64,000 nt of DNA, taken from the NCBI GenBank assembly GCA_038210655.1, contig JBBQWM010000003.1:49729-113728 (forward strand), written 5' to 3'. The position numbers and the translations under genes are program-made. This DNA is from Chloroflexia bacterium (GTDB taxonomy: Bacteria; Chloroflexota; Chloroflexia; Chloroheliales; Chloroheliaceae). Position 1 is the first letter of the stretch; each line of letters opens with the position of its first letter. This document shows positions 26,383 to 47,858 of this stretch, one piece after another. The notes under the pieces were generated by a model. It was not told the DNA's origin. It ran no database searches and saw only the letters and a list, made by a program, of their open reading frames with translations.

Positions 26383-26997
26383 TTAACTCTCATAATCGAA
26401 CAAATCCGAAACGGGCATGGTGAAGCCGGACAAGATTTCTTCACCCTCAAGCTGATCGCTGCGACCCAGAAGCTTGACTGGCTTTAAGCTATCTTGCAGG
26501 TGATAGATTTCAACAGTTCCAATCTTCTTTTTAGGGGCCGTTTTAAGCGGGTAGATCAGCCAGACTACATTCCACCCGGCAGTTCGGTAATCCTCAAATT
26601 TCTCTCGATACAGACCGGGTCTATCGTGGGTCGAGTAGACTTCGACTGCCAGACTGGGCCTGACCGTAACCGCTCCTGCGTCCAGGGTGCTAATCAAACT
26701 GGCCGGTATAAAAGTCAGATCAGGTGAGCGTATTGTGTCGGTATCGGGGTCAACTTTCAGCTTGAAGAGGCCCGGCGGTAATACTCGCCCTAGCCGTTTG
26801 GAACGTACATAATCCCTAAGTGCGCCGTATAAGTTATCCGCTACCAACATGTGTTCACCGCCTGGATGTGACATCTCTTGGATTACTCCTCTCACCAACT
26901 CATAGCGTTTGTCTGGGTCAAGCTCCATAGTCATAAATTCTTCGGCGGTGTAGAGCCGAGTACGCGGTGTGTCGGTAGTTCTTAACGGTAAAGCCAT
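26383..26997 (-). CDS. Uma2 family endonuclease (DUF820), paralog 2
   Basis: YELVRG, RSPDLTF, LAVEVYS, K..DY..AG, WLIYP. Confidence 0.9.
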   Translation of the reverse strand: MALPLRTTDTPRTRLYTAEEFMTMELDPDKRYELVRGVIQEMSHPGGEHMLVADNLYGALRDYVRSKRLGRVLPPGLFKLKVDPDTDTIRSPDLTFIPASLISTLDAGAVTVRPSLAVEVYSTHDRPGLYREKFEDYRTAGWNVVWLIYPLKTAPKKKIGTVEIYHLQDSLKPVKLLGRSDQLEGEEILSGFTMPVSDLFDYES

Positions 26998-27039: not shown

Positions 27040-27651
27040 TTAGCTCTCGTAATCGAACAGATCGGCGACCAGCATCGTGAAGCCGGACAAGCTTTCTTCG
27101 CCTTCAAGTTGATCGGTGCGACCTAGAATCTTGACTGGCTTTAAGCTGTCTTGCAGGTGATAGATTTCGACTGTTCCAGTCTTCTTTTTTGGCATCTCGT
27201 GGAGCGGGTAGATCAGCCAGACTACATTCCACCCGGCAGTTCGGTAATCCTCAAATTTCTCTCGATACAGACCGGGTCTATCGTGGGTCGAATAAACCTC
27301 AACTGCCAAATTGGGTATGACGGTGAAAGCGCGGGGTTGTCCGGTGATCTTTTCTTTGGAGAGGAAAACCAGGTCAGGCGAACGTACTGTGTCAGTCTCA
27401 GGCTCAATCTTTAGCTTGAAGTTGCCGGGTGGTAGCACCCGGCCCAGGCTTCTAGACCGCACATAGTCTCTAAGCGCTCCATAAAGGTTATCCGTTACGA
27501 GGGTATGTTCTTCGCCGGGATGTGACATTGCTTCCACAACTCCTCTCACCAGTTCATAGCGTTTGCCTGGGTCAAGGTCCAGGGTCATAAATTCTTCGGC
27601 GGTATAGAGCCGAGTACGTGGGGTGTCGGTAGTTCTTAACGGTAAGGCCAT
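27040..27651 (-). CDS. Uma2 family endonuclease (DUF820), paralog 1
   Basis: Same motifs; tandem duplicate of the adjacent gene. Confidence 0.9.
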   Translation of the reverse strand: MALPLRTTDTPRTRLYTAEEFMTLDLDPGKRYELVRGVVEAMSHPGEEHTLVTDNLYGALRDYVRSRSLGRVLPPGNFKLKIEPETDTVRSPDLVFLSKEKITGQPRAFTVIPNLAVEVYSTHDRPGLYREKFEDYRTAGWNVVWLIYPLHEMPKKKTGTVEIYHLQDSLKPVKILGRTDQLEGEESLSGFTMLVADLFDYES

Positions 27652-29951: not shown

Positions 29952-31157
29952 CTAAGTGCGCGTAGTTCCCTTGACTGCGTCGGTAGGCCCTTGCAACAAG
30001 AGTAAAAAAGTGTCCCCAACTTTTATTTTGTCTTTAGCACTCGGAACAATAATATTCACTCCCGCCAGTGTTTGCGAGTCCTTGACCGGCAAGATGGCTA
30101 TCGCTGCCGATTGATCGCCTTTGGTAAAGACCGGCCCGGTAGAGCTAGACCTGGTCGCATCTTCGGTCCAGCCTTTTTTCTTCATCTCGTCTCGATAGAA
30201 AGAGAGAAGCGCATCGGAACTTTCGCTGGTAGTGTAGGCAGCGTATTTTAGCTTGCTCGTATCGATCTTCTGGCCTGATAGCTGAGTAAACTTATCAAAG
30301 TCCTGGCTGGCGAAATCCAGTTTGGTTCCGGTCTTGGGTGCAGGCAAATCACCGACGACCCCGCTTCCGCTACTACTGACCAAAAAGAAAACCAATACGA
30401 TGACCAGCACTAACAGCAGCGCCCCGACCCCAATTAGAATAGGCAGCAGGCTGCTTTTTTTGGCGGCAGGGCTACCCGTCGGCGCGGGAGGCTGACCGTA
30501 GGCGACTTGTTGACCGCCATAATCGTAGCCTTGCGGTTGGGCATAGCCTTGCGGCTGATTGTAATCGGGTTGAGGTTGCCCGTAGCCCTGGGCCTGCCCT
30601 TGCGGTTGGGCATAGTTCTGGGCCTGTCCGTAATCGGCTTGCGGTTGGGCCGCCGGTGGTTGCCCGTAGCTTTGAGGCTGGTTATAGCCCTGTCCATAAT
30701 CGGGTTGGGCCGAAGGTTGGGGGGGATTATAGCCCTGGCCCTGCTGCCCATAGCTCTGGAATTGACCGTAATCGCGGGTAGAACCCGGAGGGCCACTCGA
30801 ATAACCCTGCTCGGCAAAACCATCCGGCGCGGCTGATTGATAGCCACTCGGAATAGTGCTGGCATTGTTTGGGGAGTCAACCACTTTCAAGACGGTCGTA
30901 CCGATCTGGACTGTATCACCGGAGCGCAAAGTCTGAGGCGAACTGATCCGGGTTCCGTTTACGAAGGTACCGTTCGACGAGTTGAGATCGGTCACGATCA
31001 AATTCCCGCCGCGTTCTTCGATCTCAGCGTGCTTGCGCGAGACTTGCTCATCCGGCACTACTACATCATTGCCCGACTGCCGCCCCACGACTACTTTATG
31101 GTTCGCTACATCGTAGGTGCGACCCGGTTCCGCACCTGTTTGAACTACAAGTTGCAT
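29952..31157 (-). CDS. FHA-domain bitopic membrane protein with Gln/Gly/Tyr-rich repeat linker
   Basis: [29 protein letters not shown] motifs; QPQ(G/D)Y repeats; single TM; C-terminal globular domain. Confidence 0.88.
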
Positions 31158-31428
31158 GGCTTTCCCTTGTTTTTCGTTTCTAAACCTTCGCTAAATTTGC
31201 GGTTCCACGCCTACTCAATCTCATTTCACTCTTAATACCATTTAATTATACAACGTTAGTTCCAGTCAGGCAATGTAAAACCAACCGCAAGACCAACTAA
31301 TAGCTCAAACTGTTCCCTGCCGCCTAAACAAATTGCTATCGCCTTGAAGTACCGCCTACCAAGTTTGGCTATCTTTGAGCGATGGGAAACTTTTAGCAAG
31401 TTATCCAGGCTTCTACCAGCCACTTAAT

Positions 31429-32724
31429 CTAGTAATGCACTTTGACCGGCGTTCCAATCGAGGCCCAGCCATACATAAACTTGGCGGCAGGGGTCGGCAA
31501 ATTTACGCAACCATGACTCATTGGACGACCGAAATTGTTGTGCCAGTAAGTACCGTGAATAGCGTAATTCGAGTAGAAATACATCACGTAAGGTACGCCG
31601 GGCAGATAATAATATTCACGCCCACTTCCGCCACTCATCGCCTGGCTACCGTATTTGACGTAAATGTTAAAGGTTCCCGTTACGGTCGGGTGGTTTGAAA
31701 CCCCGGTGCTAACCAGCGTGCTAAACACGGCAGTCTTGCCATCATAAGCGGTCAGTCTTTGTTTACTCAAATTTACGTCGATCCACTTACCACTGGTATC
31801 GGTATTGATGACCGAGGGAGGGACCGGTTGGGCTGCGACGGCGGTCGCTTTGGGCTGAGGTGCTACAGCCCCGCTTGCGCCCGGAATAGTCAGGACCTGG
31901 CCGGAGAAAATCAGGCTGGGATTGACAATATTGTTGGCCCGTTGGATCGCCTCGACGGTGGTATTAAAACGAGTGGCAATACTAGAAAGGTTATCGCCCG
32001 ATTGTACCGTATAAGTCCCGCTACTTACTGTTGATGAAGGGGGGGCGGGGGCCACTGCCGAGGCTGCCACTGCGGTTGCCGTTGAAGCCGGAGCCGCCGT
32101 ATCAGAAGCTATAATTGGGGTAGCGGTCGGCGGAATGGGTGTCGCGGTCGCTGGAGCAGGGGTAGCCGTCGGTGGAATGGGCGTAAAAGTCGGGGCTACT
32201 ATCACGGTGGGAGCCGGGTTAACCGTCTCGGAAGCCGGGGTGGTGGCTGCCAGGGCTGAGGCCACTTTGCCCGGAATCCGCAAACTCTGTCCGGCATAAA
32301 TATAATTCATGACCGAGATTTTGTTGGCGGAAGCCAGTTCGAGTAGGGTTACATTAAAGCGAGCGGCAATTGTAGAAAGGTTGTCGCCACGCTGTACAAT
32401 GTAGGCTTGCTCATTGGTGGTCGGTGGAGTGGGACTGTTGTTAGAATTGGAGCCATTGGCGTTCGGGATCGTAAGTTTTTGCCCGCCGAAAATATTGTTG
32501 ACGTTGAGGATGTCGTTGGCTTTTGCAATCGAACTGACTGTCACACCATAACGGGCCGCAATACTGGTCAGATTATCGCCGCGCTTGACTACATAAGTTT
32601 CATCGGCGGCTTCGGCAGTCTCCACTACCACCAGTCCAATCGACAAAACCAGCACCAGCGCAATCACTAGCGAAAGCCAGCCCTGTCCCCATCCTTTTCC
32701 ACGCATAACTGCCCTGTTAAACAT
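31429..32724 (-). CDS. Secreted 3xLysM plus YkuD L,D-transpeptidase
   Basis: Signal peptide, three LysM motifs (Y.V..GDNL..IA.RF), AIHGTYW...SHGCVNL catalytic motif. Confidence 0.93.
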   Translation of the reverse strand: MFNRAVMRGKGWGQGWLSLVIALVLVLSIGLVVVETAEAADETYVVKRGDNLTSIAARYGVTVSSIAKANDILNVNNIFGGQKLTIPNANGSNSNNSPTPPTTNEQAYIVQRGDNLSTIAARFNVTLLELASANKISVMNYIYAGQSLRIPGKVASALAATTPASETVNPAPTVIVAPTFTPIPPTATPAPATATPIPPTATPIIASDTAAPASTATAVAASAVAPAPPSSTVSSGTYTVQSGDNLSSIATRFNTTVEAIQRANNIVNPSLIFSGQVLTIPGASGAVAPQPKATAVAAQPVPPSVINTDTSGKWIDVNLSKQRLTAYDGKTAVFSTLVSTGVSNHPTVTGTFNIYVKYGSQAMSGGSGREYYYLPGVPYVMYFYSNYAIHGTYWHNNFGRPMSHGCVNLPTPAAKFMYGWASIGTPVKVHY

Positions 32725-32979
32725 TGATCGTCCCTCTCAATGGGGCCACAAAAGTTACCCCTTAAACCTGGTTCGGTTTTTACTTTACCTTATAATGAAC
32801 TGCTAAAACTTGCAGGTGTGCATTGACATAACTTTACCTGTATCTCGATTATACCACCAATTTTCAACTTGACAATAAATTTGGAACTGAATTTTAGAAA
32901 AAGATTGAAAATAATTTATTTACTAAGTTTTAGCTTTCTCGGCGGTCTCTGGGGTGAGTAGTTCCAAAATTCTTATGAA

Positions 32980-33009
32980 ATAAAAAGGCGCGACGGGAAT
33001 CGCGCCTTT
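32980..33009 (-). terminator. Rho-independent terminator ending the peptide/NHLP-like transcript
   Basis: aaaggcgcga-loop-tcgcgcctttttatt on the minus strand. Confidence 0.75.
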
Positions 33010-33243: not shown

Positions 33244-33591
33244 TTAGGCTGATCGCAAACTGCGTGCCGCCTCTGGCTGATAATTGCCAAGAGTGCCGGA
33301 ACCGACCACTGCCAGGGCGCGGCGTTGTTCTTCGCGCTCGAATCGGTCGCGCTCTTCGATAAGCAAGCGACAAAACTGCCGGAAATCCGTTGTCGCACCG
33401 GCCACGTGCTGAAGCATTTCGACTTCCAGGCGTGGCAGAGTGCAGATCGGACTGGAGTCCACTGCCATTTGCCGATTATACTCGTGAGCGGCTTCGAGAG
33501 GGTCGCGCATTAAAAGCTGCTTAAATTCACAATCAGCGACTGCCATCTCGATCAAAACATTCAGTTGTAAGGCGCTTTTTAGACTCTTCAT
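33244..33591 (-). CDS. Small protein with NHLP-leader-like N-terminus
   Basis: LIEMAVADCEFKQLLMRDPLEA resembles the nitrile-hydratase-like leader motif A..D..F+..L..DP; GAGGGGAG RBS; no Gly-Gly plus Cys/Ser/Thr core. Confidence 0.6.
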   Translation of the reverse strand: MKSLKSALQLNVLIEMAVADCEFKQLLMRDPLEAAHEYNRQMAVDSSPICTLPRLEVEMLQHVAGATTDFRQFCRLLIEERDRFEREEQRRALAVVGSGTLGNYQPEAARSLRSA

Positions 33592-33692
33592 TTCCAAATC
33601 TCCCCTCTACCAGTTCCAGAGATATTAAATCTCAAAACTGTGAGAAGTAATCGATACCAGCCATAAATCTAATTTAAGGCTAAGAGAGTCCC

Positions 33693-33845
33693 CTAGTAAC
33701 CCGAACCGTTGTCCGGCATATCGTAACCCGAACCGTTGTCCGGCATATCGTAACCCGAACCATTGTCCGGCATATCGTAACCAGAGCCGTTATCCGGCAT
33801 ATCAAGTGTGTAAACGCCCAACCCCGCAAATTTAACCTTATTCAT
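33693..33845 (-). CDS. Unannotated 50-aa peptide MNKVKFAGLGVYTL-(DMPDNGSGY)x4
   Basis: GAGGTGGAGG RBS 8 nt before ATG; four in-frame 27-nt repeats differing only at synonymous third positions; TAG directly after the last repeat. Confidence 0.85.
   Translation of the reverse strand: MNKVKFAGLGVYTLDMPDNGSGYDMPDNGSGYDMPDNGSGYDMPDNGSGY
33696..33803. repeat. Four direct tandem 27-bp repeats (coding)
   Basis: gtaacccgaaccgttgtccggcatatc x2, gtaacccgaaccattgtccggcatatc, gtaaccagagccgttatccggcatatc; no spacers. Confidence 0.95.
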
Positions 33846-34293
33846 CGAAGTAACCTCCACCTCGTTAATTCTTCTGACGTACTAGCAGGAGACCCGTTAA
33901 AGCACCAATGCTGTCGTGACTATCAGTAGACCCGTTTAGTGGACCCGTGTAAGACTTAACTTACTTGTATGGGTGTATCATACAGGATGATTCTTGTAGG
34001 TATCTTGCAGTTTTCGGTGGTTTTGAGGTTTTTTTTTCATCAATTACGCAAAATAGGGCTTTTCCTATTTTGCATCATGCCGAAATGAGGTTATAATAGA
34101 GGTAGAACCAAGTTATAGCGTATTGATGATTTGGTCTCAAATGGGAATAGCGGTTTATACTAATTTACCTCTCGATTATAAGGTATAAGTGACCGCAAGT
34201 ATAGGGTCTGGGGTAATCCAGAAGGGTAGTTATTAAAAGTAAGGCTGTAAGACCGTTCAGTAACGGTACGAAGGGTAACGGAAAAATACCATC

Positions 34294-37200
34294 ATGTTGA
34301 CCATACCTGCAACTCGCTTGCTTGTCCCGGCCCGACCCGCGCCGGAACGCTTGCTCGAACGTCGTCGCCTGTTGAGTAAATTAACCGAGCGCCGCCGCAA
34401 GCTGATGATGCTGGTCGCTCCGGCAGGTTTCGGAAAAACGACCCTGGCGCTCGACTACGTTGCCAGCAATAATTTGTGGCAGGTCGGGGAAGCCGTAGCA
34501 TGGCTTTCGCTTGACCTGGGGGGAATCGTCAAATGGGATACGCGCATTTTTGTCCAGGCCCTTAGCCTTTCTTTAAAGAATGCGTTACCCAGCCTTGACC
34601 TCTCTGAAATTCAGCACGAACTGGCGGCTATGCCACCCGGTAGTGAACTCTCCGAAGAAATGGCGGCCCACCTGACTTTTTCGCTTTGTAACGCGCTGGC
34701 CCAGCAACCCCGTCCGGTGCTGCTAACCATCGACGATTATCATATGGTCTGCGACGAGCGGAGCGTCAAGGATGCCGGGCTTATCAACGATATTGTCAAC
34801 GCCTTTCTTATAACCTCACCTGGTCAGGTGCGGATTTTGCTTTCCAGCCGGGTCTATCCACGAGTGGATACGCTTAAACTGGTCGCCGACGATGAGTTGG
34901 TGGTAGTTAATAAGAAGGAACTCAAGTTTACTGAGGATGAAATCAAAGCTTTCCTTAGTTTACGCAGCAAAGATACCGCTCTATCCAACAAGGTGATGGA
35001 AGAGAGCGGAGGTTGGGCGGCAGCTATTTCGCTCAAACTGCAAAACCTCGATATGGAGGCCCAACTCAAAGAGCAGAACTATGGTGGGGCGATTGTCGCT
35101 TCTAGCCGTTACAACATTCTGGCTGAGGAAATGCTCAAACAGCTTGAGCGTCCTTTACGCCGCCTGCTCGAAGCTTGTTCGGCCCTCGAACTTGGGATCA
35201 ATGCCCCACTTGCCAGCCGCCTGATAAGCTGTTACGAGGTGATCGAAGCGCCAATCTCGGAGGCTATTATAGAAGCGCAGCTTCAAAAGCTGGAAATTTC
35301 CGGCCTGATCGAGCGCAACGAGACCAATCCCATTGCCGACGAGAAGGTTTCCCTCTACCGTCTGCACAGCCTTCTAAAAGAATATCTCGAAAAGAACCTG
35401 AGTGAACAGGCTTCCCAGGCTCTCAACAGTGCCGCCAGCGCCTATTATCTTGAGATCGGGGATTGGTCGCTGGCTTTTGAACACGCCCTCAAAGCTGGGA
35501 ATCACCCGGAAGCCGCCGAAATTCTCGAAAGACAGGCTTACGAACAGTTCAAGAGTAGTAAGGTTTCGGAGATTGAAAAATACGTCTCGCGTTTAGATGA
35601 GTCGGCCCTGGAAAAACACCCTCACTTGCTGTTGGTAGCAGGGATGGCAAGCTTTACCGCCGGACATACCGATAAAGCGCTGGCTTATTATCACGCGGCA
35701 AACAAACGTTGGGGTCGCTACGACGCTTTAGACCAGCTGATTTATAATGAAAATCTGGGGCCGGAAAATACTCTTACCATCGTGCCGCCTGCGCTCAATA
35801 TGGATTTGTTCCGTCTACTCAACAAGGCTGAAACGGTCGTGATTATGGCCCGGCTATGGCAGGCTACCGGGCGCAACCTTAAAGCGATTGCCGCCCTGGA
35901 AGGGGTCAAAGGTTTCCTCGACTCTTTGCAGAGCGAAAGCGAGCAGAGCGAAGACCGGCGGCTTTACGTGCTGGCGCTGGCCCGGCGCTTTTTGGGCAAT
36001 TGTTATCGGTTGGACGGGCGGCTCAACGAAAGCATCGAAGAGTTGACCCGTGCCATTAACATTTTTGTCCAACTGGACGATGGTTATAATATTGCAAGCT
36101 GCCGCCAGAACCTCGGTATTTCATGGCGACAGTTGGGCAACCAGGCCCGCGCCGAATTAAACTTCCGCCAATCGCTCGAATATTGGGAGCGGCAAGGTTT
36201 TAACACCAGTCAACTTAGCAATACCCTGAATAGCCTGGCGGTCGGTTTGATTAACGAAGGTCGTTACCAGGAAGCGGTCGGGTTGCTACTCAAAGCGCTT
36301 GATAAGGCCGTCGAAGCCGGTCACGAAGCGATGAACCACTATATTCTGGCCGGTTTGGGGGATGCTTACCTGGGGTTGCGCGACAAAGAAAAGGCCCTTG
36401 CGTGTTACGCTCAGGCCGGGGCCGAGGCCAGTCGCCAGAATAATTTTGAGATGCTGACCTACGCCAAGTTGGGAACCGCTCGGAGCCAGCGCCGGGGCGG
36501 AGAAATGTCTCAGGCGCGGCAGGCAATTCTGGCCGCGCTGGATTACGCCGACGAAGGCAGCGACGGAGATCGAGCCGCTGCGACCCTCGAAAACGGGGTC
36601 TATCTATTATTTAACTCGCATATCGAACTAGCTCAGGCCAATATTGAAGGGGCGCTGGCCCTGGCTCACAAGGTGCAATCCCGCCAGACCGAGGCGCTGG
36701 CCCATTTCTGGCTGGCCTATCTCTACTTTAAAGTAGGCCGTTATAAACCGTCCAACGACAATATGCGTAAGGCAATCAATCTGGCTCAGGAGCTTGGCTA
36801 TGATGCTTTCTTGCACGAGGAAGCGACCGAACTGACCGACTTTGCCCAGCATTTCCGGGTCAACCCTAACGATGCGGTGGGCGCTTTCTTTGCGCGTGGT
36901 GACGATTACGCCGCTAACCCGGCTACCAAGATCGAGCTACGGGCCTTTGGCAAGGGCCGGATTTTGCGAGGCGGTCAAGAAGTCCCTTCGGTCAGCCGCA
37001 AGGCCCGCGAGTTAATCTTTTTGTTGGGCGATGAGAAAGTGCCGGTTAGCGGCGAACGGCTTTCCGAAATGCTGTGGCCTGAAATAGTGCTGGCCGGTAG
37101 TGGGCTAGGTAGCGGTTTTTATAGCACGATTACCCACGCTCGGCGGGCGTTGGGTAGCCCGGAGTCGATCCGGGCTTCGGACGGCTCCTATTCGCTCAAT

Positions 37201-37671
37201 TTGCGTTATTTTTACGATGTCGATCAGTTTGAGGATCATTTAAGCCGGGCTGAGAAGCTGACCGAACTAGAAACCCGGATCGAGTATTTGCTGGCGGCGC
37301 TCGATTTGGTCAAGGGTGAATTCCTGATTGATGTGGATAGCGAATGGGCGCACCAGCGTCGCCAACAGCTTTTGAATAAAAAGCTGCGAGTTCTTCGGTT
37401 GTTAGCGACCGCTTATATCGCCCTGGACAATCGAGAAAAAGCGCTGGATACTTTAACCCTATTAATGGAGGCCGACCCTTATGATGAGGAGGCTTTGCGA
37501 GAATACACTAATCTTTTGGCGGAGGTCAAGAGTAAAACCATTGCGCTTAATTTCCTGCGTCGCAAGATGGAAGAACTAACCAAAGATGGGATCGAGCCGG
37601 AAGAAGTTACTCAACAGCTTTTCGATGAACTCGATGTTTCTCGCTCGGTAGCCCGGCGGCGAAAAGCTTGA
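34294..37671 (+). CDS. Large transcriptional regulator: MalT-type ATPase, TPR array, C-terminal wHTH/BTAD (SARP-like)
   Basis: APAGFGKT, LLTIDDYH; multiple TPRs; LRAFG..., LWPE, DVDQFE, KGEFL...W, ADPYDEE BTAD motifs. Confidence 0.9.
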   Translation: MLTIPATRLLVPARPAPERLLERRRLLSKLTERRRKLMMLVAPAGFGKTTLALDYVASNNLWQVGEAVAWLSLDLGGIVKWDTRIFVQALSLSLKNALPSLDLSEIQHELAAMPPGSELSEEMAAHLTFSLCNALAQQPRPVLLTIDDYHMVCDERSVKDAGLINDIVNAFLITSPGQVRILLSSRVYPRVDTLKLVADDELVVVNKKELKFTEDEIKAFLSLRSKDTALSNKVMEESGGWAAAISLKLQNLDMEAQLKEQNYGGAIVASSRYNILAEEMLKQLERPLRRLLEACSALELGINAPLASRLISCYEVIEAPISEAIIEAQLQKLEISGLIERNETNPIADEKVSLYRLHSLLKEYLEKNLSEQASQALNSAASAYYLEIGDWSLAFEHALKAGNHPEAAEILERQAYEQFKSSKVSEIEKYVSRLDESALEKHPHLLLVAGMASFTAGHTDKALAYYHAANKRWGRYDALDQLIYNENLGPENTLTIVPPALNMDLFRLLNKAETVVIMARLWQATGRNLKAIAALEGVKGFLDSLQSESEQSEDRRLYVLALARRFLGNCYRLDGRLNESIEELTRAINIFVQLDDGYNIASCRQNLGISWRQLGNQARAELNFRQSLEYWERQGFNTSQLSNTLNSLAVGLINEGRYQEAVGLLLKALDKAVEAGHEAMNHYILAGLGDAYLGLRDKEKALACYAQAGAEASRQNNFEMLTYAKLGTARSQRRGGEMSQARQAILAALDYADEGSDGDRAAATLENGVYLLFNSHIELAQANIEGALALAHKVQSRQTEALAHFWLAYLYFKVGRYKPSNDNMRKAINLAQELGYDAFLHEEATELTDFAQHFRVNPNDAVGAFFARGDDYAANPATKIELRAFGKGRILRGGQEVPSVSRKARELIFLLGDEKVPVSGERLSEMLWPEIVLAGSGLGSGFYSTITHARRALGSPESIRASDGSYSLNLRYFYDVDQFEDHLSRAEKLTELETRIEYLLAALDLVKGEFLIDVDSEWAHQRRQQLLNKKLRVLRLLATAYIALDNREKALDTLTLLMEADPYDEEALREYTNLLAEVKSKTIALNFLRRKMEELTKDGIEPEEVTQQLFDELDVSRSVARRRKA

Positions 37672-47354: not shown

Positions 47355-47858
47355 ATGAAGGGTTCTGCGGTTTTTATGCTTATTATTTTAGGGCTATATC
47401 TCTTACCAGCCCTAATTGCCCTCAGCTGCAAAAGGAGGAATGCTGGCCCTATTTTTGTGCTAAATTTGTTATTGGGTTGGAGTGTTATAGGTTGGGTGGT
47501 GGCGTTGGTCTGGGCTTCTACCAAAGATACACCCAAAATTAATGTTTACAATCTGTCGCCCCAATATCCCATTTATCCCATCCAGCCGGGCTATTACGCC
47601 TACCCTCCTCAGCAAGGTTATTACGCCTACCCTCCTCAACAAGGCTATTACGCCTACCCTCCTCAGCAAGGTTACTACGTCTACCCTAATCAGCCGGGTT
47701 ATTATGGTTATCCTCCCCAGTCGGGCTATTTGCCACCTGCGCCGGGCAATTATCCAGCGCCTTACACGCCACCACCATATTATCCCACTGATAAACCAAT
47801 CTACGGTTTTCCACCCCCTCAAAACCAGGGTTGGGATCGTAATAATAAGGATGAGTAG
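47355..47858 (+). CDS. Superinfection-immunity (T4 Imm-like) membrane protein with Tyr/Pro/Gln repeat tail
   Basis: YLLPALIA...R.N...IFVLNLLLGWSVIGWVVALVWA; AGGAG RBS. Confidence 0.8.
   Translation: MKGSAVFMLIILGLYLLPALIALSCKRRNAGPIFVLNLLLGWSVIGWVVALVWASTKDTPKINVYNLSPQYPIYPIQPGYYAYPPQQGYYAYPPQQGYYAYPPQQGYYVYPNQPGYYGYPPQSGYLPPAPGNYPAPYTPPPYYPTDKPIYGFPPPQNQGWDRNNKDE
47589..47723 (+). repeat. Five tandem 27-bp coding repeats (GYYAYPPQQ)
   Basis: ggctattacgcctaccctcctcagcaa x3 plus two degenerate copies. Confidence 0.88.

Follow-up and report, generated by a model that had tools for sequence, protein, structure and literature searches.

AfsS of Streptomyces is a protein of 63-87 aa whose gene adjoins afsR and is activated by AfsR; it carries two to five short repeats, and AfsS proteins share 17-38% identity (PMC10832544; PMC2267785). 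The repeats bind AfsR and so raise the affinity of AfsR for promoters, as has been shown experimentally in Streptomyces (PMC10832544). SARP sites are direct repeats at 11 (or 22) bp, the 3' one lying 8 bp from the -10 box; a site of this kind, which overlaps the -35 region, is bound by two SARP protomers (PMC10936776). In the RRNPPA systems, propeptide genes lie beside those of TPR receptors, the mature peptide is C-terminal, a propeptide can contain as many as six identical copies, and two propeptide genes accompany some receptors (PMC9765709). It is still not clear how large SARP/STAND regulators, AfsR included, are switched on, and for decades it was obscure what AfsS does.

We analysed a stretch of 64,000 nt (the window) from a genome of the Chloroheliaceae, Chloroflexota phototrophs with a type I reaction centre (PMC10972752). 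It contains a small ORF, composed mostly of exact repeats, next to the divergent gene of a large NOD-TPR-SARP regulator (Table 1). The locus resembles AfsR/AfsS of Streptomyces far more than it resembles a RiPP precursor. By analogy with AfsR/AfsS, we consider it somewhat probable that regulator and repeat peptide form a self-activating pair, the repeat unit being the probable ligand of the TPR sensor.

Table 1. Positions of features in the window.
Feature	Position	Strand	Details
Small ORF, 50 aa + TAG	33693..33845	-	MNKVKFAGLGVYTL(DMPDNGSGY)x4; orthologues in 11 other loci
N-terminal leader, 14 aa, basic/hydrophobic	33804..33845	-	Peptide alignment A5
Four 27-nt units, head-to-tail, without spacers	33696..33803	-	Tandem Repeats Finder
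Ribosome-binding site	33854..33863	-	GAGGTGGAGG, 8 nt before ATG; GGAGG conserved in alignment A1
Hairpin just after peptide stop	33659..33681	-	AGCCTTAAAT-TAG-ATTTATGGCT; read from the sequence
-10 box of peptide operon	33977..33982	-	TATGAT; columns T312, A313, T317 invariant in 11 loci
Putative SARP box	33991..34009	-	Direct repeats TGCAAGAT (34009..34002) and TACAAGAA (33998..33991)
Three GGGTC(C/T)NCT repeats	33888..33949	-	Within the ~125-nt operon 5' leader
115-aa protein, second operon gene	33244..33591	-	Co-transcription seen in orthologues
Intrinsic terminator closing the operon	32984..33009	-	11-bp stem and T-run
Divergent 1125-aa regulator	34294..37671	+	MalT-like NOD ATPase, TPR sensor, C-terminal SARP domain
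Regulator promoter, near-consensus sigma-70	34069..34097	+	TTTGCA-17-TATAAT
Perfect 10-bp inverted repeat	34048-34073		GCAAAATAGG-N6-CCTATTTTGC
LysM-YkuD L,D-transpeptidase gene and FHA-protein neighbour	29952-32724
Promoter of LysM-YkuD gene	32875..32848
Uma2-family endonuclease paralogues	26383-26997 and 27040-27651
Superinfection-immunity-domain membrane protein	47355-47858		PPQQGYYAY x3-4

The minus strand from 33845 to 33693 begins ATG AAT AAG and encodes MNKVKFAGLGVYTL followed by four DMPDNGSGY units, with the TAG stop immediately 3' of the last unit. Tandem Repeats Finder gives a period of 27 and 4.0 copies at 33696-33803, and translation agrees in every detail with the first-pass annotation, which had described the layout of the ORF, its strong ribosome-binding site, its leader and its four exact repeats. 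The longest mechanical ORF at the locus begins with a GTG (33860) and opens inside the ribosome-binding site, which makes the ATG the credible start of the 50-aa ORF; the arrangement of ribosome-binding site and ATG is kept in the orthologues (alignment A1). In alignment A5 the leader ends in L, which lines up with the aromatic residue that closes each unit. The window peptide is predicted to be disordered (AlphaFold2, pLDDT 47), which would suit a propeptide or an array of short linear motifs better than a folded mini-protein. A second copy of the peptide was not found in the 6.7-Mb genome. The hairpin behind the stop is common only to the window and the two closest loci, and the spacer between the peptide and 115-aa genes has no consensus RNA structure over all loci.

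An equivalent small ORF occupies the same position in 11 further loci from congeners, the sister genus and metagenomes, making 12 in all (Table 2), and in every case it is flanked by the genes of a divergent NOD-TPR-SARP regulator on one side and of a conserved 115-aa helical protein on the other. The first-pass annotation had expected such ORFs beside orthologues of the regulator, with related leaders and variable repeats, and this is what we find: the leaders are similar, and both the number and the sequence of the repeats vary. The equivalents came from six-frame searches of relatives and of contigs reached through the neighbouring 115-aa protein. Protein-database searches with the peptide or its alignment gave no match among 5.8 billion sequences, as short, low-complexity queries fall below significance in a set of that size. 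Copy number ranges from one to six, and the unit is species-specific with the consensus D-x-P-D-x4-aromatic. Between loci it varies at five of its nine positions. D, P and D are the only invariant residues; Ser, Thr, Cys and Lys are not conserved, and DQPDAGAGF has none of them. The sister-genus peptides are single-core and end in PDNTFDD or PDNTFDG. In both genera, these single-copy peptides included, Pro-Asp stands exactly five residues from the C-terminus, every peptide ORF has its stop directly after the last unit, and the first Asp is preceded by a hydrophobic or aromatic residue, the kind that also ends the unit. The leaders are 11-16 aa long, basic and then hydrophobic (alignment A5), and among those compared only that of the second G010 paralogue, whose N-terminus MKIFSFLNFVLALLGAAPSQG is hydrophobic and signal-peptide-like, resembles a Sec signal.

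Table 2. Peptides of the 12 loci. The first eight are of the window's genus type.
Locus	Leader	Unit	Copies	Peptide or C-terminus
G000 (window)	MNKVKFAGLGVYTL	DMPDNGSGY	4
G005	MNTLVKFAVAGFSSF	DMPDNGSGF	5
G003	MEMVKCAKLGLYTC	DEPDQGASY	4
G004	METLVFAVRFA	DMPDCGSGM	4
L030	MNKLVKFEVLGFCSF	DMPDGGSSF	6
L034	MIKVVKGVGSFVF	DQPDAGAGF	4
L035	MIKVVKGVASFVF	DQPDAGSTF	5
L033	MQALNVVEMGLAIVSF	DNPDCASGW	1
G012 (sister genus)				MMKLNSRNCGLAPDNTFDD
G014 (sister genus)				...CGMGPDNTFDG
L062 (sister-genus type)				METNKLKLGPDNTFDD
G010 (sister genus)				Two adjacent peptide genes (L029 1180-1421), both ending APDNTFDD

In the window array, four columns vary among the repeats, all at third codon positions and all synonymous, from which the first-pass annotation had argued for selection on the peptide. 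Its argument extends to all seven multi-copy loci: at least 39 nucleotide differences lie within the arrays, and all (39/39) are synonymous changes at third positions, where random changes would be synonymous in ~20% of cases (log10 P = -26.5, P ~1e-26). Each array is thus held to one peptide, though the peptide varies between species. Frameshifts and non-synonymous repeat variation within arrays, which had been named as evidence against a peptide gene, were looked for in the orthologues and not seen, and the orthologues are transcribed (below). Comparison of the sequences therefore confirmed that 33693-33845 is a real gene under selection on its peptide, a strongly selected and, in its orthologues, highly transcribed case that gene callers miss. 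As we read the sequences, amino-acid changes must either have been fixed before the arrays re-expanded or have been homogenised with the synonymous differences left intact. In the G003, G004 and G005 arrays (L004, L005, L006) synonymous codon variants alternate ABAB, which argues that in these three, double units of 54 nt were duplicated as the arrays grew. Copy-number variants of the source sample are unreadable in Logan contigs, which break within the repeat.

Identity of the copies within an array, combined with units that are species-specific, is what a single cognate binding pocket would impose. We suggest that the D-x-P-D-x4-aromatic units are a species-specific ligand of the regulator, binding most likely at its TPR sensor, and that several identical copies would raise the dose or the valency of this ligand. 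We lean towards a free nonapeptide as the active species, released by a single cleavage specificity between a hydrophobic or aromatic residue and Asp, because the units have no spacers, the leader ends as a unit does, the stop follows the last unit and the five residues from Pro-Asp to the C-terminus are kept. For the window peptide, the sequence makes cleavage between Y and D (aromatic and Asp) plausible.

The same features could belong to a pheromone. In that case an exported propeptide would be cut into n identical acidic nonapeptides that are re-imported, bind the TPR of the STAND regulator and activate their own promoter, which would be quorum sensing with RRNPPA logic but a different receptor architecture. 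One to six copies, C-terminal units and the two peptide genes of G010, one of them with the signal-peptide-like N-terminus, would all be expected of it; species-specific units in identical copies would fit pherotype specificity, and the putatively autoregulatory promoter described below fits as well. The short basic/hydrophobic leaders also resemble those of SHP/ComS-type propeptides. A canonical Sec signal, however, needs more length than their 11-16 aa, the conserved unit neither contains nor adjoins a gene for an exporter, a processing protease or an oligopeptide permease, and we know of no peptide quorum sensing in Chloroflexota. Leaderless Rgg/ComR-type propeptides, moreover, were never found duplicated in the RRNPPA survey (PMC9765709). 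The RRNPPA systems (Rap/Phr, NprR/NprX, PlcR/PapR, AimR/AimP, Rgg/SHP) have, as here, a cytoplasmic TPR receptor and an adjacent small propeptide gene, and their active part is C-terminal, as we suppose for the unit. Their receptors differ in being HTH-TPR or phosphatase-TPR proteins with 5-9 TPRs and no ATPase, whereas the regulator of the window is a 1125-aa STAND ATPase with a SARP output, and they belong to Bacillota, whereas the window peptide comes from outside that phylum and has no canonical signal peptide. Export is in our judgement possible but unlikely. Were it real, this would be the first peptide signalling system in Chloroflexota, with a new receptor class, and the Chloroheliaceae would have species-specific 'pherotypes'.

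Our preferred reading, the self-activating pair, draws on the promoter of the peptide gene. The regulator-peptide intergenic alignment (A1; 11 loci, both genera) contains two invariant islands, the regulator -10 box (TATTATAAC on the opposite strand; invariant in 11 loci) and TGCAAGA-N4-NCAAGA followed by TAnnnT. The second island holds the putative SARP box: its repeats recur every 11 bp, and 8 bp separate the end of the 3' repeat from the -10 box TATGAT, which matches the site geometry given for SARP proteins (PMC10936776). A search of the genome with TGCAAGA-N6-[CA]AAGA returned eight hits, and only the one at the peptide promoter is intergenic with the correct -10 spacing. A hit in C76 lies inside a coding ORF, and a recurring pair in C106, 211 nt from each other, is not correctly spaced from a -10 box; none of these was accepted as a further target. 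As the genome has no second convincing box, the regulator appears to be dedicated to the peptide operon. From this anatomy and the SARP literature, we propose that the peptide operon is the dedicated target of the divergent regulator and that two SARP-domain protomers would bind the 11-bp-spaced repeats, overlapping the -35 region, and turn the operon on. A peptide acting on the regulator would close a positive feedback loop, as for AfsS and AfsR.

The three GGGTC(C/T)NCT repeats of the operon 5' leader recur in G005, L030, L033, L034 and L035 and are absent from G003 and G004. They may serve as a second operator or as an RNA element. Neither the leader nor the spacer matches an RNA family in Rfam. 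A role of the ORF as attenuator or leader peptide is unlikely, given the range of one to six copies and the strong ribosome-binding sites of both operon genes. On the other side of the intergenic region, a perfect 10-bp inverted repeat (GCAAAATAGG-N6-CCTATTTTGC) overlaps the -35 box of the regulator promoter and may be the operator of another factor.

No RNA runs holding the window's own sequence were found, and the evidence for transcription comes from the orthologues of G012 and G005. In four freshwater metatranscriptomes, contigs 100% identical to the G012 locus span only its positions 204-869, beginning ~20 nt downstream of the predicted start site and taking in the peptide ORF and the 115-aa gene, with nothing in the 470 nt upstream and minimal coverage of the regulator. 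For G005, the window's closest relative (5x DMPDNGSGF), contigs from four microbial-mat metatranscriptomes extend over the repeat array, spacer and 115-aa gene and a ~170-nt trailer. Word depths are 9-80 on the operon, whereas the regulator has 0-4.5 and the downstream LysM gene 0-5. Over both loci, depths are 4-80 on the operon and 0-5 on the flanks; the metatranscriptome contigs carry no strand. The G005 contigs start ~30 nt before the ATG, whereas the predicted start is ~108 nt upstream, and end ~170 nt past the stop of the 115-aa gene. They begin downstream of the GGGTC(C/T)NCT region. The RNA unit of these orthologues, its boundaries and its high level match the predicted two-gene operon. 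In the window, the small ORF would accordingly be the first gene of an operon that encodes the repeat peptide and the 115-aa helical protein.

The 115-aa protein is all-helical in a confident model (pLDDT 78), with a disordered basic tail, and has no fold match in the PDB. Its family is confined to the Chloroheliaceae, with four hits among 1.84 billion representatives (HMMER). The C-terminus ends in an invariant R-[ST]-A, and two Cys (C50, C74) are conserved (alignment A2). The tail is clade-specific as well as basic: the window's genus has Y-x-P-E...LRSA, the sister genus EERFExLTLRSA. Since the acidic peptide is clade-specific too, tail and peptide may interact. Residues 13-38 contain a weak 26-residue motif resembling NHLP and nitrile hydratase alpha (NHLP, E 0.04-0.1; nitrile hydratase alpha, E 1). 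Its scores against TIGR03793 / NF038399 (12.5 bits vs a cut-off of 50.9, 13.9 vs 40) and the lack of a conserved Gly-Gly site followed by a variable core led us to reject the protein as an NHLP leader. Weak NHLP-like hits elsewhere in the relatives (L048, L054) are unrelated small proteins with no such regulators nearby.

This NHLP-clan motif, faint as it is, would suit a multi-core RiPP precursor, to which the first-pass annotation had compared the ORF by way of the cyanobactins: cores modified by remote enzymes, for example cyclised after Pro or hydroxylated, with the regulator only controlling production. A leader followed by identical repeated cores is indeed a known RiPP layout, seen also in graspetides such as plesiocin and shared by the Kex2-processed repeat peptides of fungi, and the unit conserves Pro, Asp and an aromatic residue. 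The NHLP scores lie far below cut-off, however, and the ORFs examined within ~13 kb include no radical-SAM, YcaO, LanM, ATP-grasp, macrocyclase, prolyl oligopeptidase or peptidase-ABC exporter. No recognition or cleavage sequences separate the cores, and the unit, in which only D, P and D are invariant, offers no conserved Ser, Thr, Cys or Lys for modification. The conserved unit is only three genes, a self-contained module in changing neighbourhoods, with a different downstream neighbour in G003. We consider a RiPP highly improbable. The first-pass annotation had itself noted the absence of an adjacent modifying enzyme, which holds for the main ORFs at ~19.9-47.9 kb of the window (~13 kb around the ORF), where Pfam finds no RiPP maturation enzyme or peptide exporter, and had held an unmodified signal at least as likely. 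Of the two halves of its reading, the unmodified peptide linked with the regulator is the stronger; the cassette-RiPP half is not supported, and the AfsR/AfsS analogue was missed.

The main ORFs at ~19.9-47.9 kb encode cell-wall L,D-transpeptidases, an FHA protein, restriction-modification and housekeeping proteins; a CAAX-type protease lies 12 kb from the small ORF. Downstream of the operon, a LysM-YkuD L,D-transpeptidase gene with its own promoter is found across the genus (window, L030, L033, L036, L037), and next to it (window, L030, L031, L033) a gene for a membrane protein that has an FHA domain and a linker rich in Gln, Pro and Tyr. Because Ser/Thr phosphorylation controls regulators of the AfsR type, the FHA neighbour may be relevant. 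Beyond the regulator, on the other side, synteny is not conserved. Further off are two tandem, highly similar Uma2-family endonuclease paralogues and a superinfection-immunity-domain membrane protein with a period-9 repeat of its own (PPQQGYYAY), unrelated to the peptide gene.

These cell-wall and FHA neighbours, conserved in the genus, are compatible with a regulated output without feedback, in which the acidic disordered peptide, alone or with the 115-aa protein, would bind cations or the envelope/matrix or modulate another protein. The unit is Asp-rich with a period of nine, and the partner protein has an unassigned fold. Against such a role, Pfam gives no calcium-binding or RTX hit, and a bulk ion binder would hardly be expected to change fast between species while keeping strict identity within arrays, a pattern typical of a specific partner. 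The tight co-occurrence of the three genes and the AfsS precedent favour the regulator as that partner, and we regard an output of this kind as distinctly improbable. RTX repeats (GGxGxDxUx, beta-roll) were considered and rejected: in the register NGSGYDMPD Pro takes the hydrophobic position, the Gly at position 4 is lost in DEPDQGASY, and the AF2 model is disordered, with no Pfam hit. An EF-hand-like calcium motif was rejected by direct reading and for want of a Pfam hit.

Returning to the self-activating pair, its second member, the regulator, consists of NOD (1-~450), TPR (~560-860) and SARP (~885-1113) regions in that order. The N-terminus matches the NOD of MalT (PDB 8bob, E 1e-16; NCBIfam PRK04841, region 8-449), and Pfam assigns AAA_16/AAA_22, several TPR families at 561-831 and BTAD at residues 975-1113 (E 3e-16). 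The best PDB match of the C-terminal 256 aa is the SARP domain of AfsR, winged helix and BTA (8hvr_I, E 0.008). Although the peptide varies between species, the TPR block (561-860) is, by per-domain identity among ten regulators, no more divergent than the rest, the variable segments being residues 301-350 and 451-550; this counts against our reading. No repeat ORF stands beside the genome's four other BTAD-domain proteins, three of which are large (699-1189 aa).

Regulator, peptide and 115-aa genes occur together in exactly seven of the 16 family genomes (4/9 species of the genus, 3/3 of the sister genus). The module is present in a related enrichment culture, L227-5C. It was not found elsewhere in ~400 class-level and ~400 phylum-level genomes, and our literature search found no paper that describes such a module outside actinomycetes. 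The locus is a stripped-down natural version of its kind, with one regulator, one promoter and one tiny ligand-like peptide. Both the repetition within the peptide and the comparison of species spell out the active unit, which makes the hypothesis of a peptide acting on the TPR directly testable.

Among STAND activators, MalT of E. coli has a homologous N-terminal NOD ATPase and, like the window regulator, joins a ligand-sensing repeat domain to a DNA-binding output; that output is a LuxR-type HTH and the inducer is maltotriose, whereas here the output is SARP and the inducer is presumed to be a gene-encoded peptide. By analogy, the closest known counterpart is AfsR/AfsS, a small repeat protein that acts on the regulator itself. 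AfsR and the window regulator share three modules, SARP, NOD ATPase and TPR. In both systems the adjacent small gene is a direct target of the regulator, here a putative one by virtue of the promoter box, and its promoter has two direct repeats spaced by 11 bp near the -10 box. The small product consists mostly of short tandem repeats, two to five in AfsS and one to six here, and diverges fast between species in both; the likeness of AfsS and the window peptide is one of architecture. The domain order is SARP-NOD-TPR in AfsR and NOD-TPR-SARP here, and the small gene lies downstream of afsR in the one case and is divergent in the other. The repeats of the window peptide are exact and abutting, the last one reaching the stop, and follow a short hydrophobic leader, which AfsS is not known to have; a second conserved gene (115 aa) is co-transcribed. 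Finally, AfsR is a global regulator, whereas its counterpart in this member of the Chloroflexota has one target promoter that we could find.
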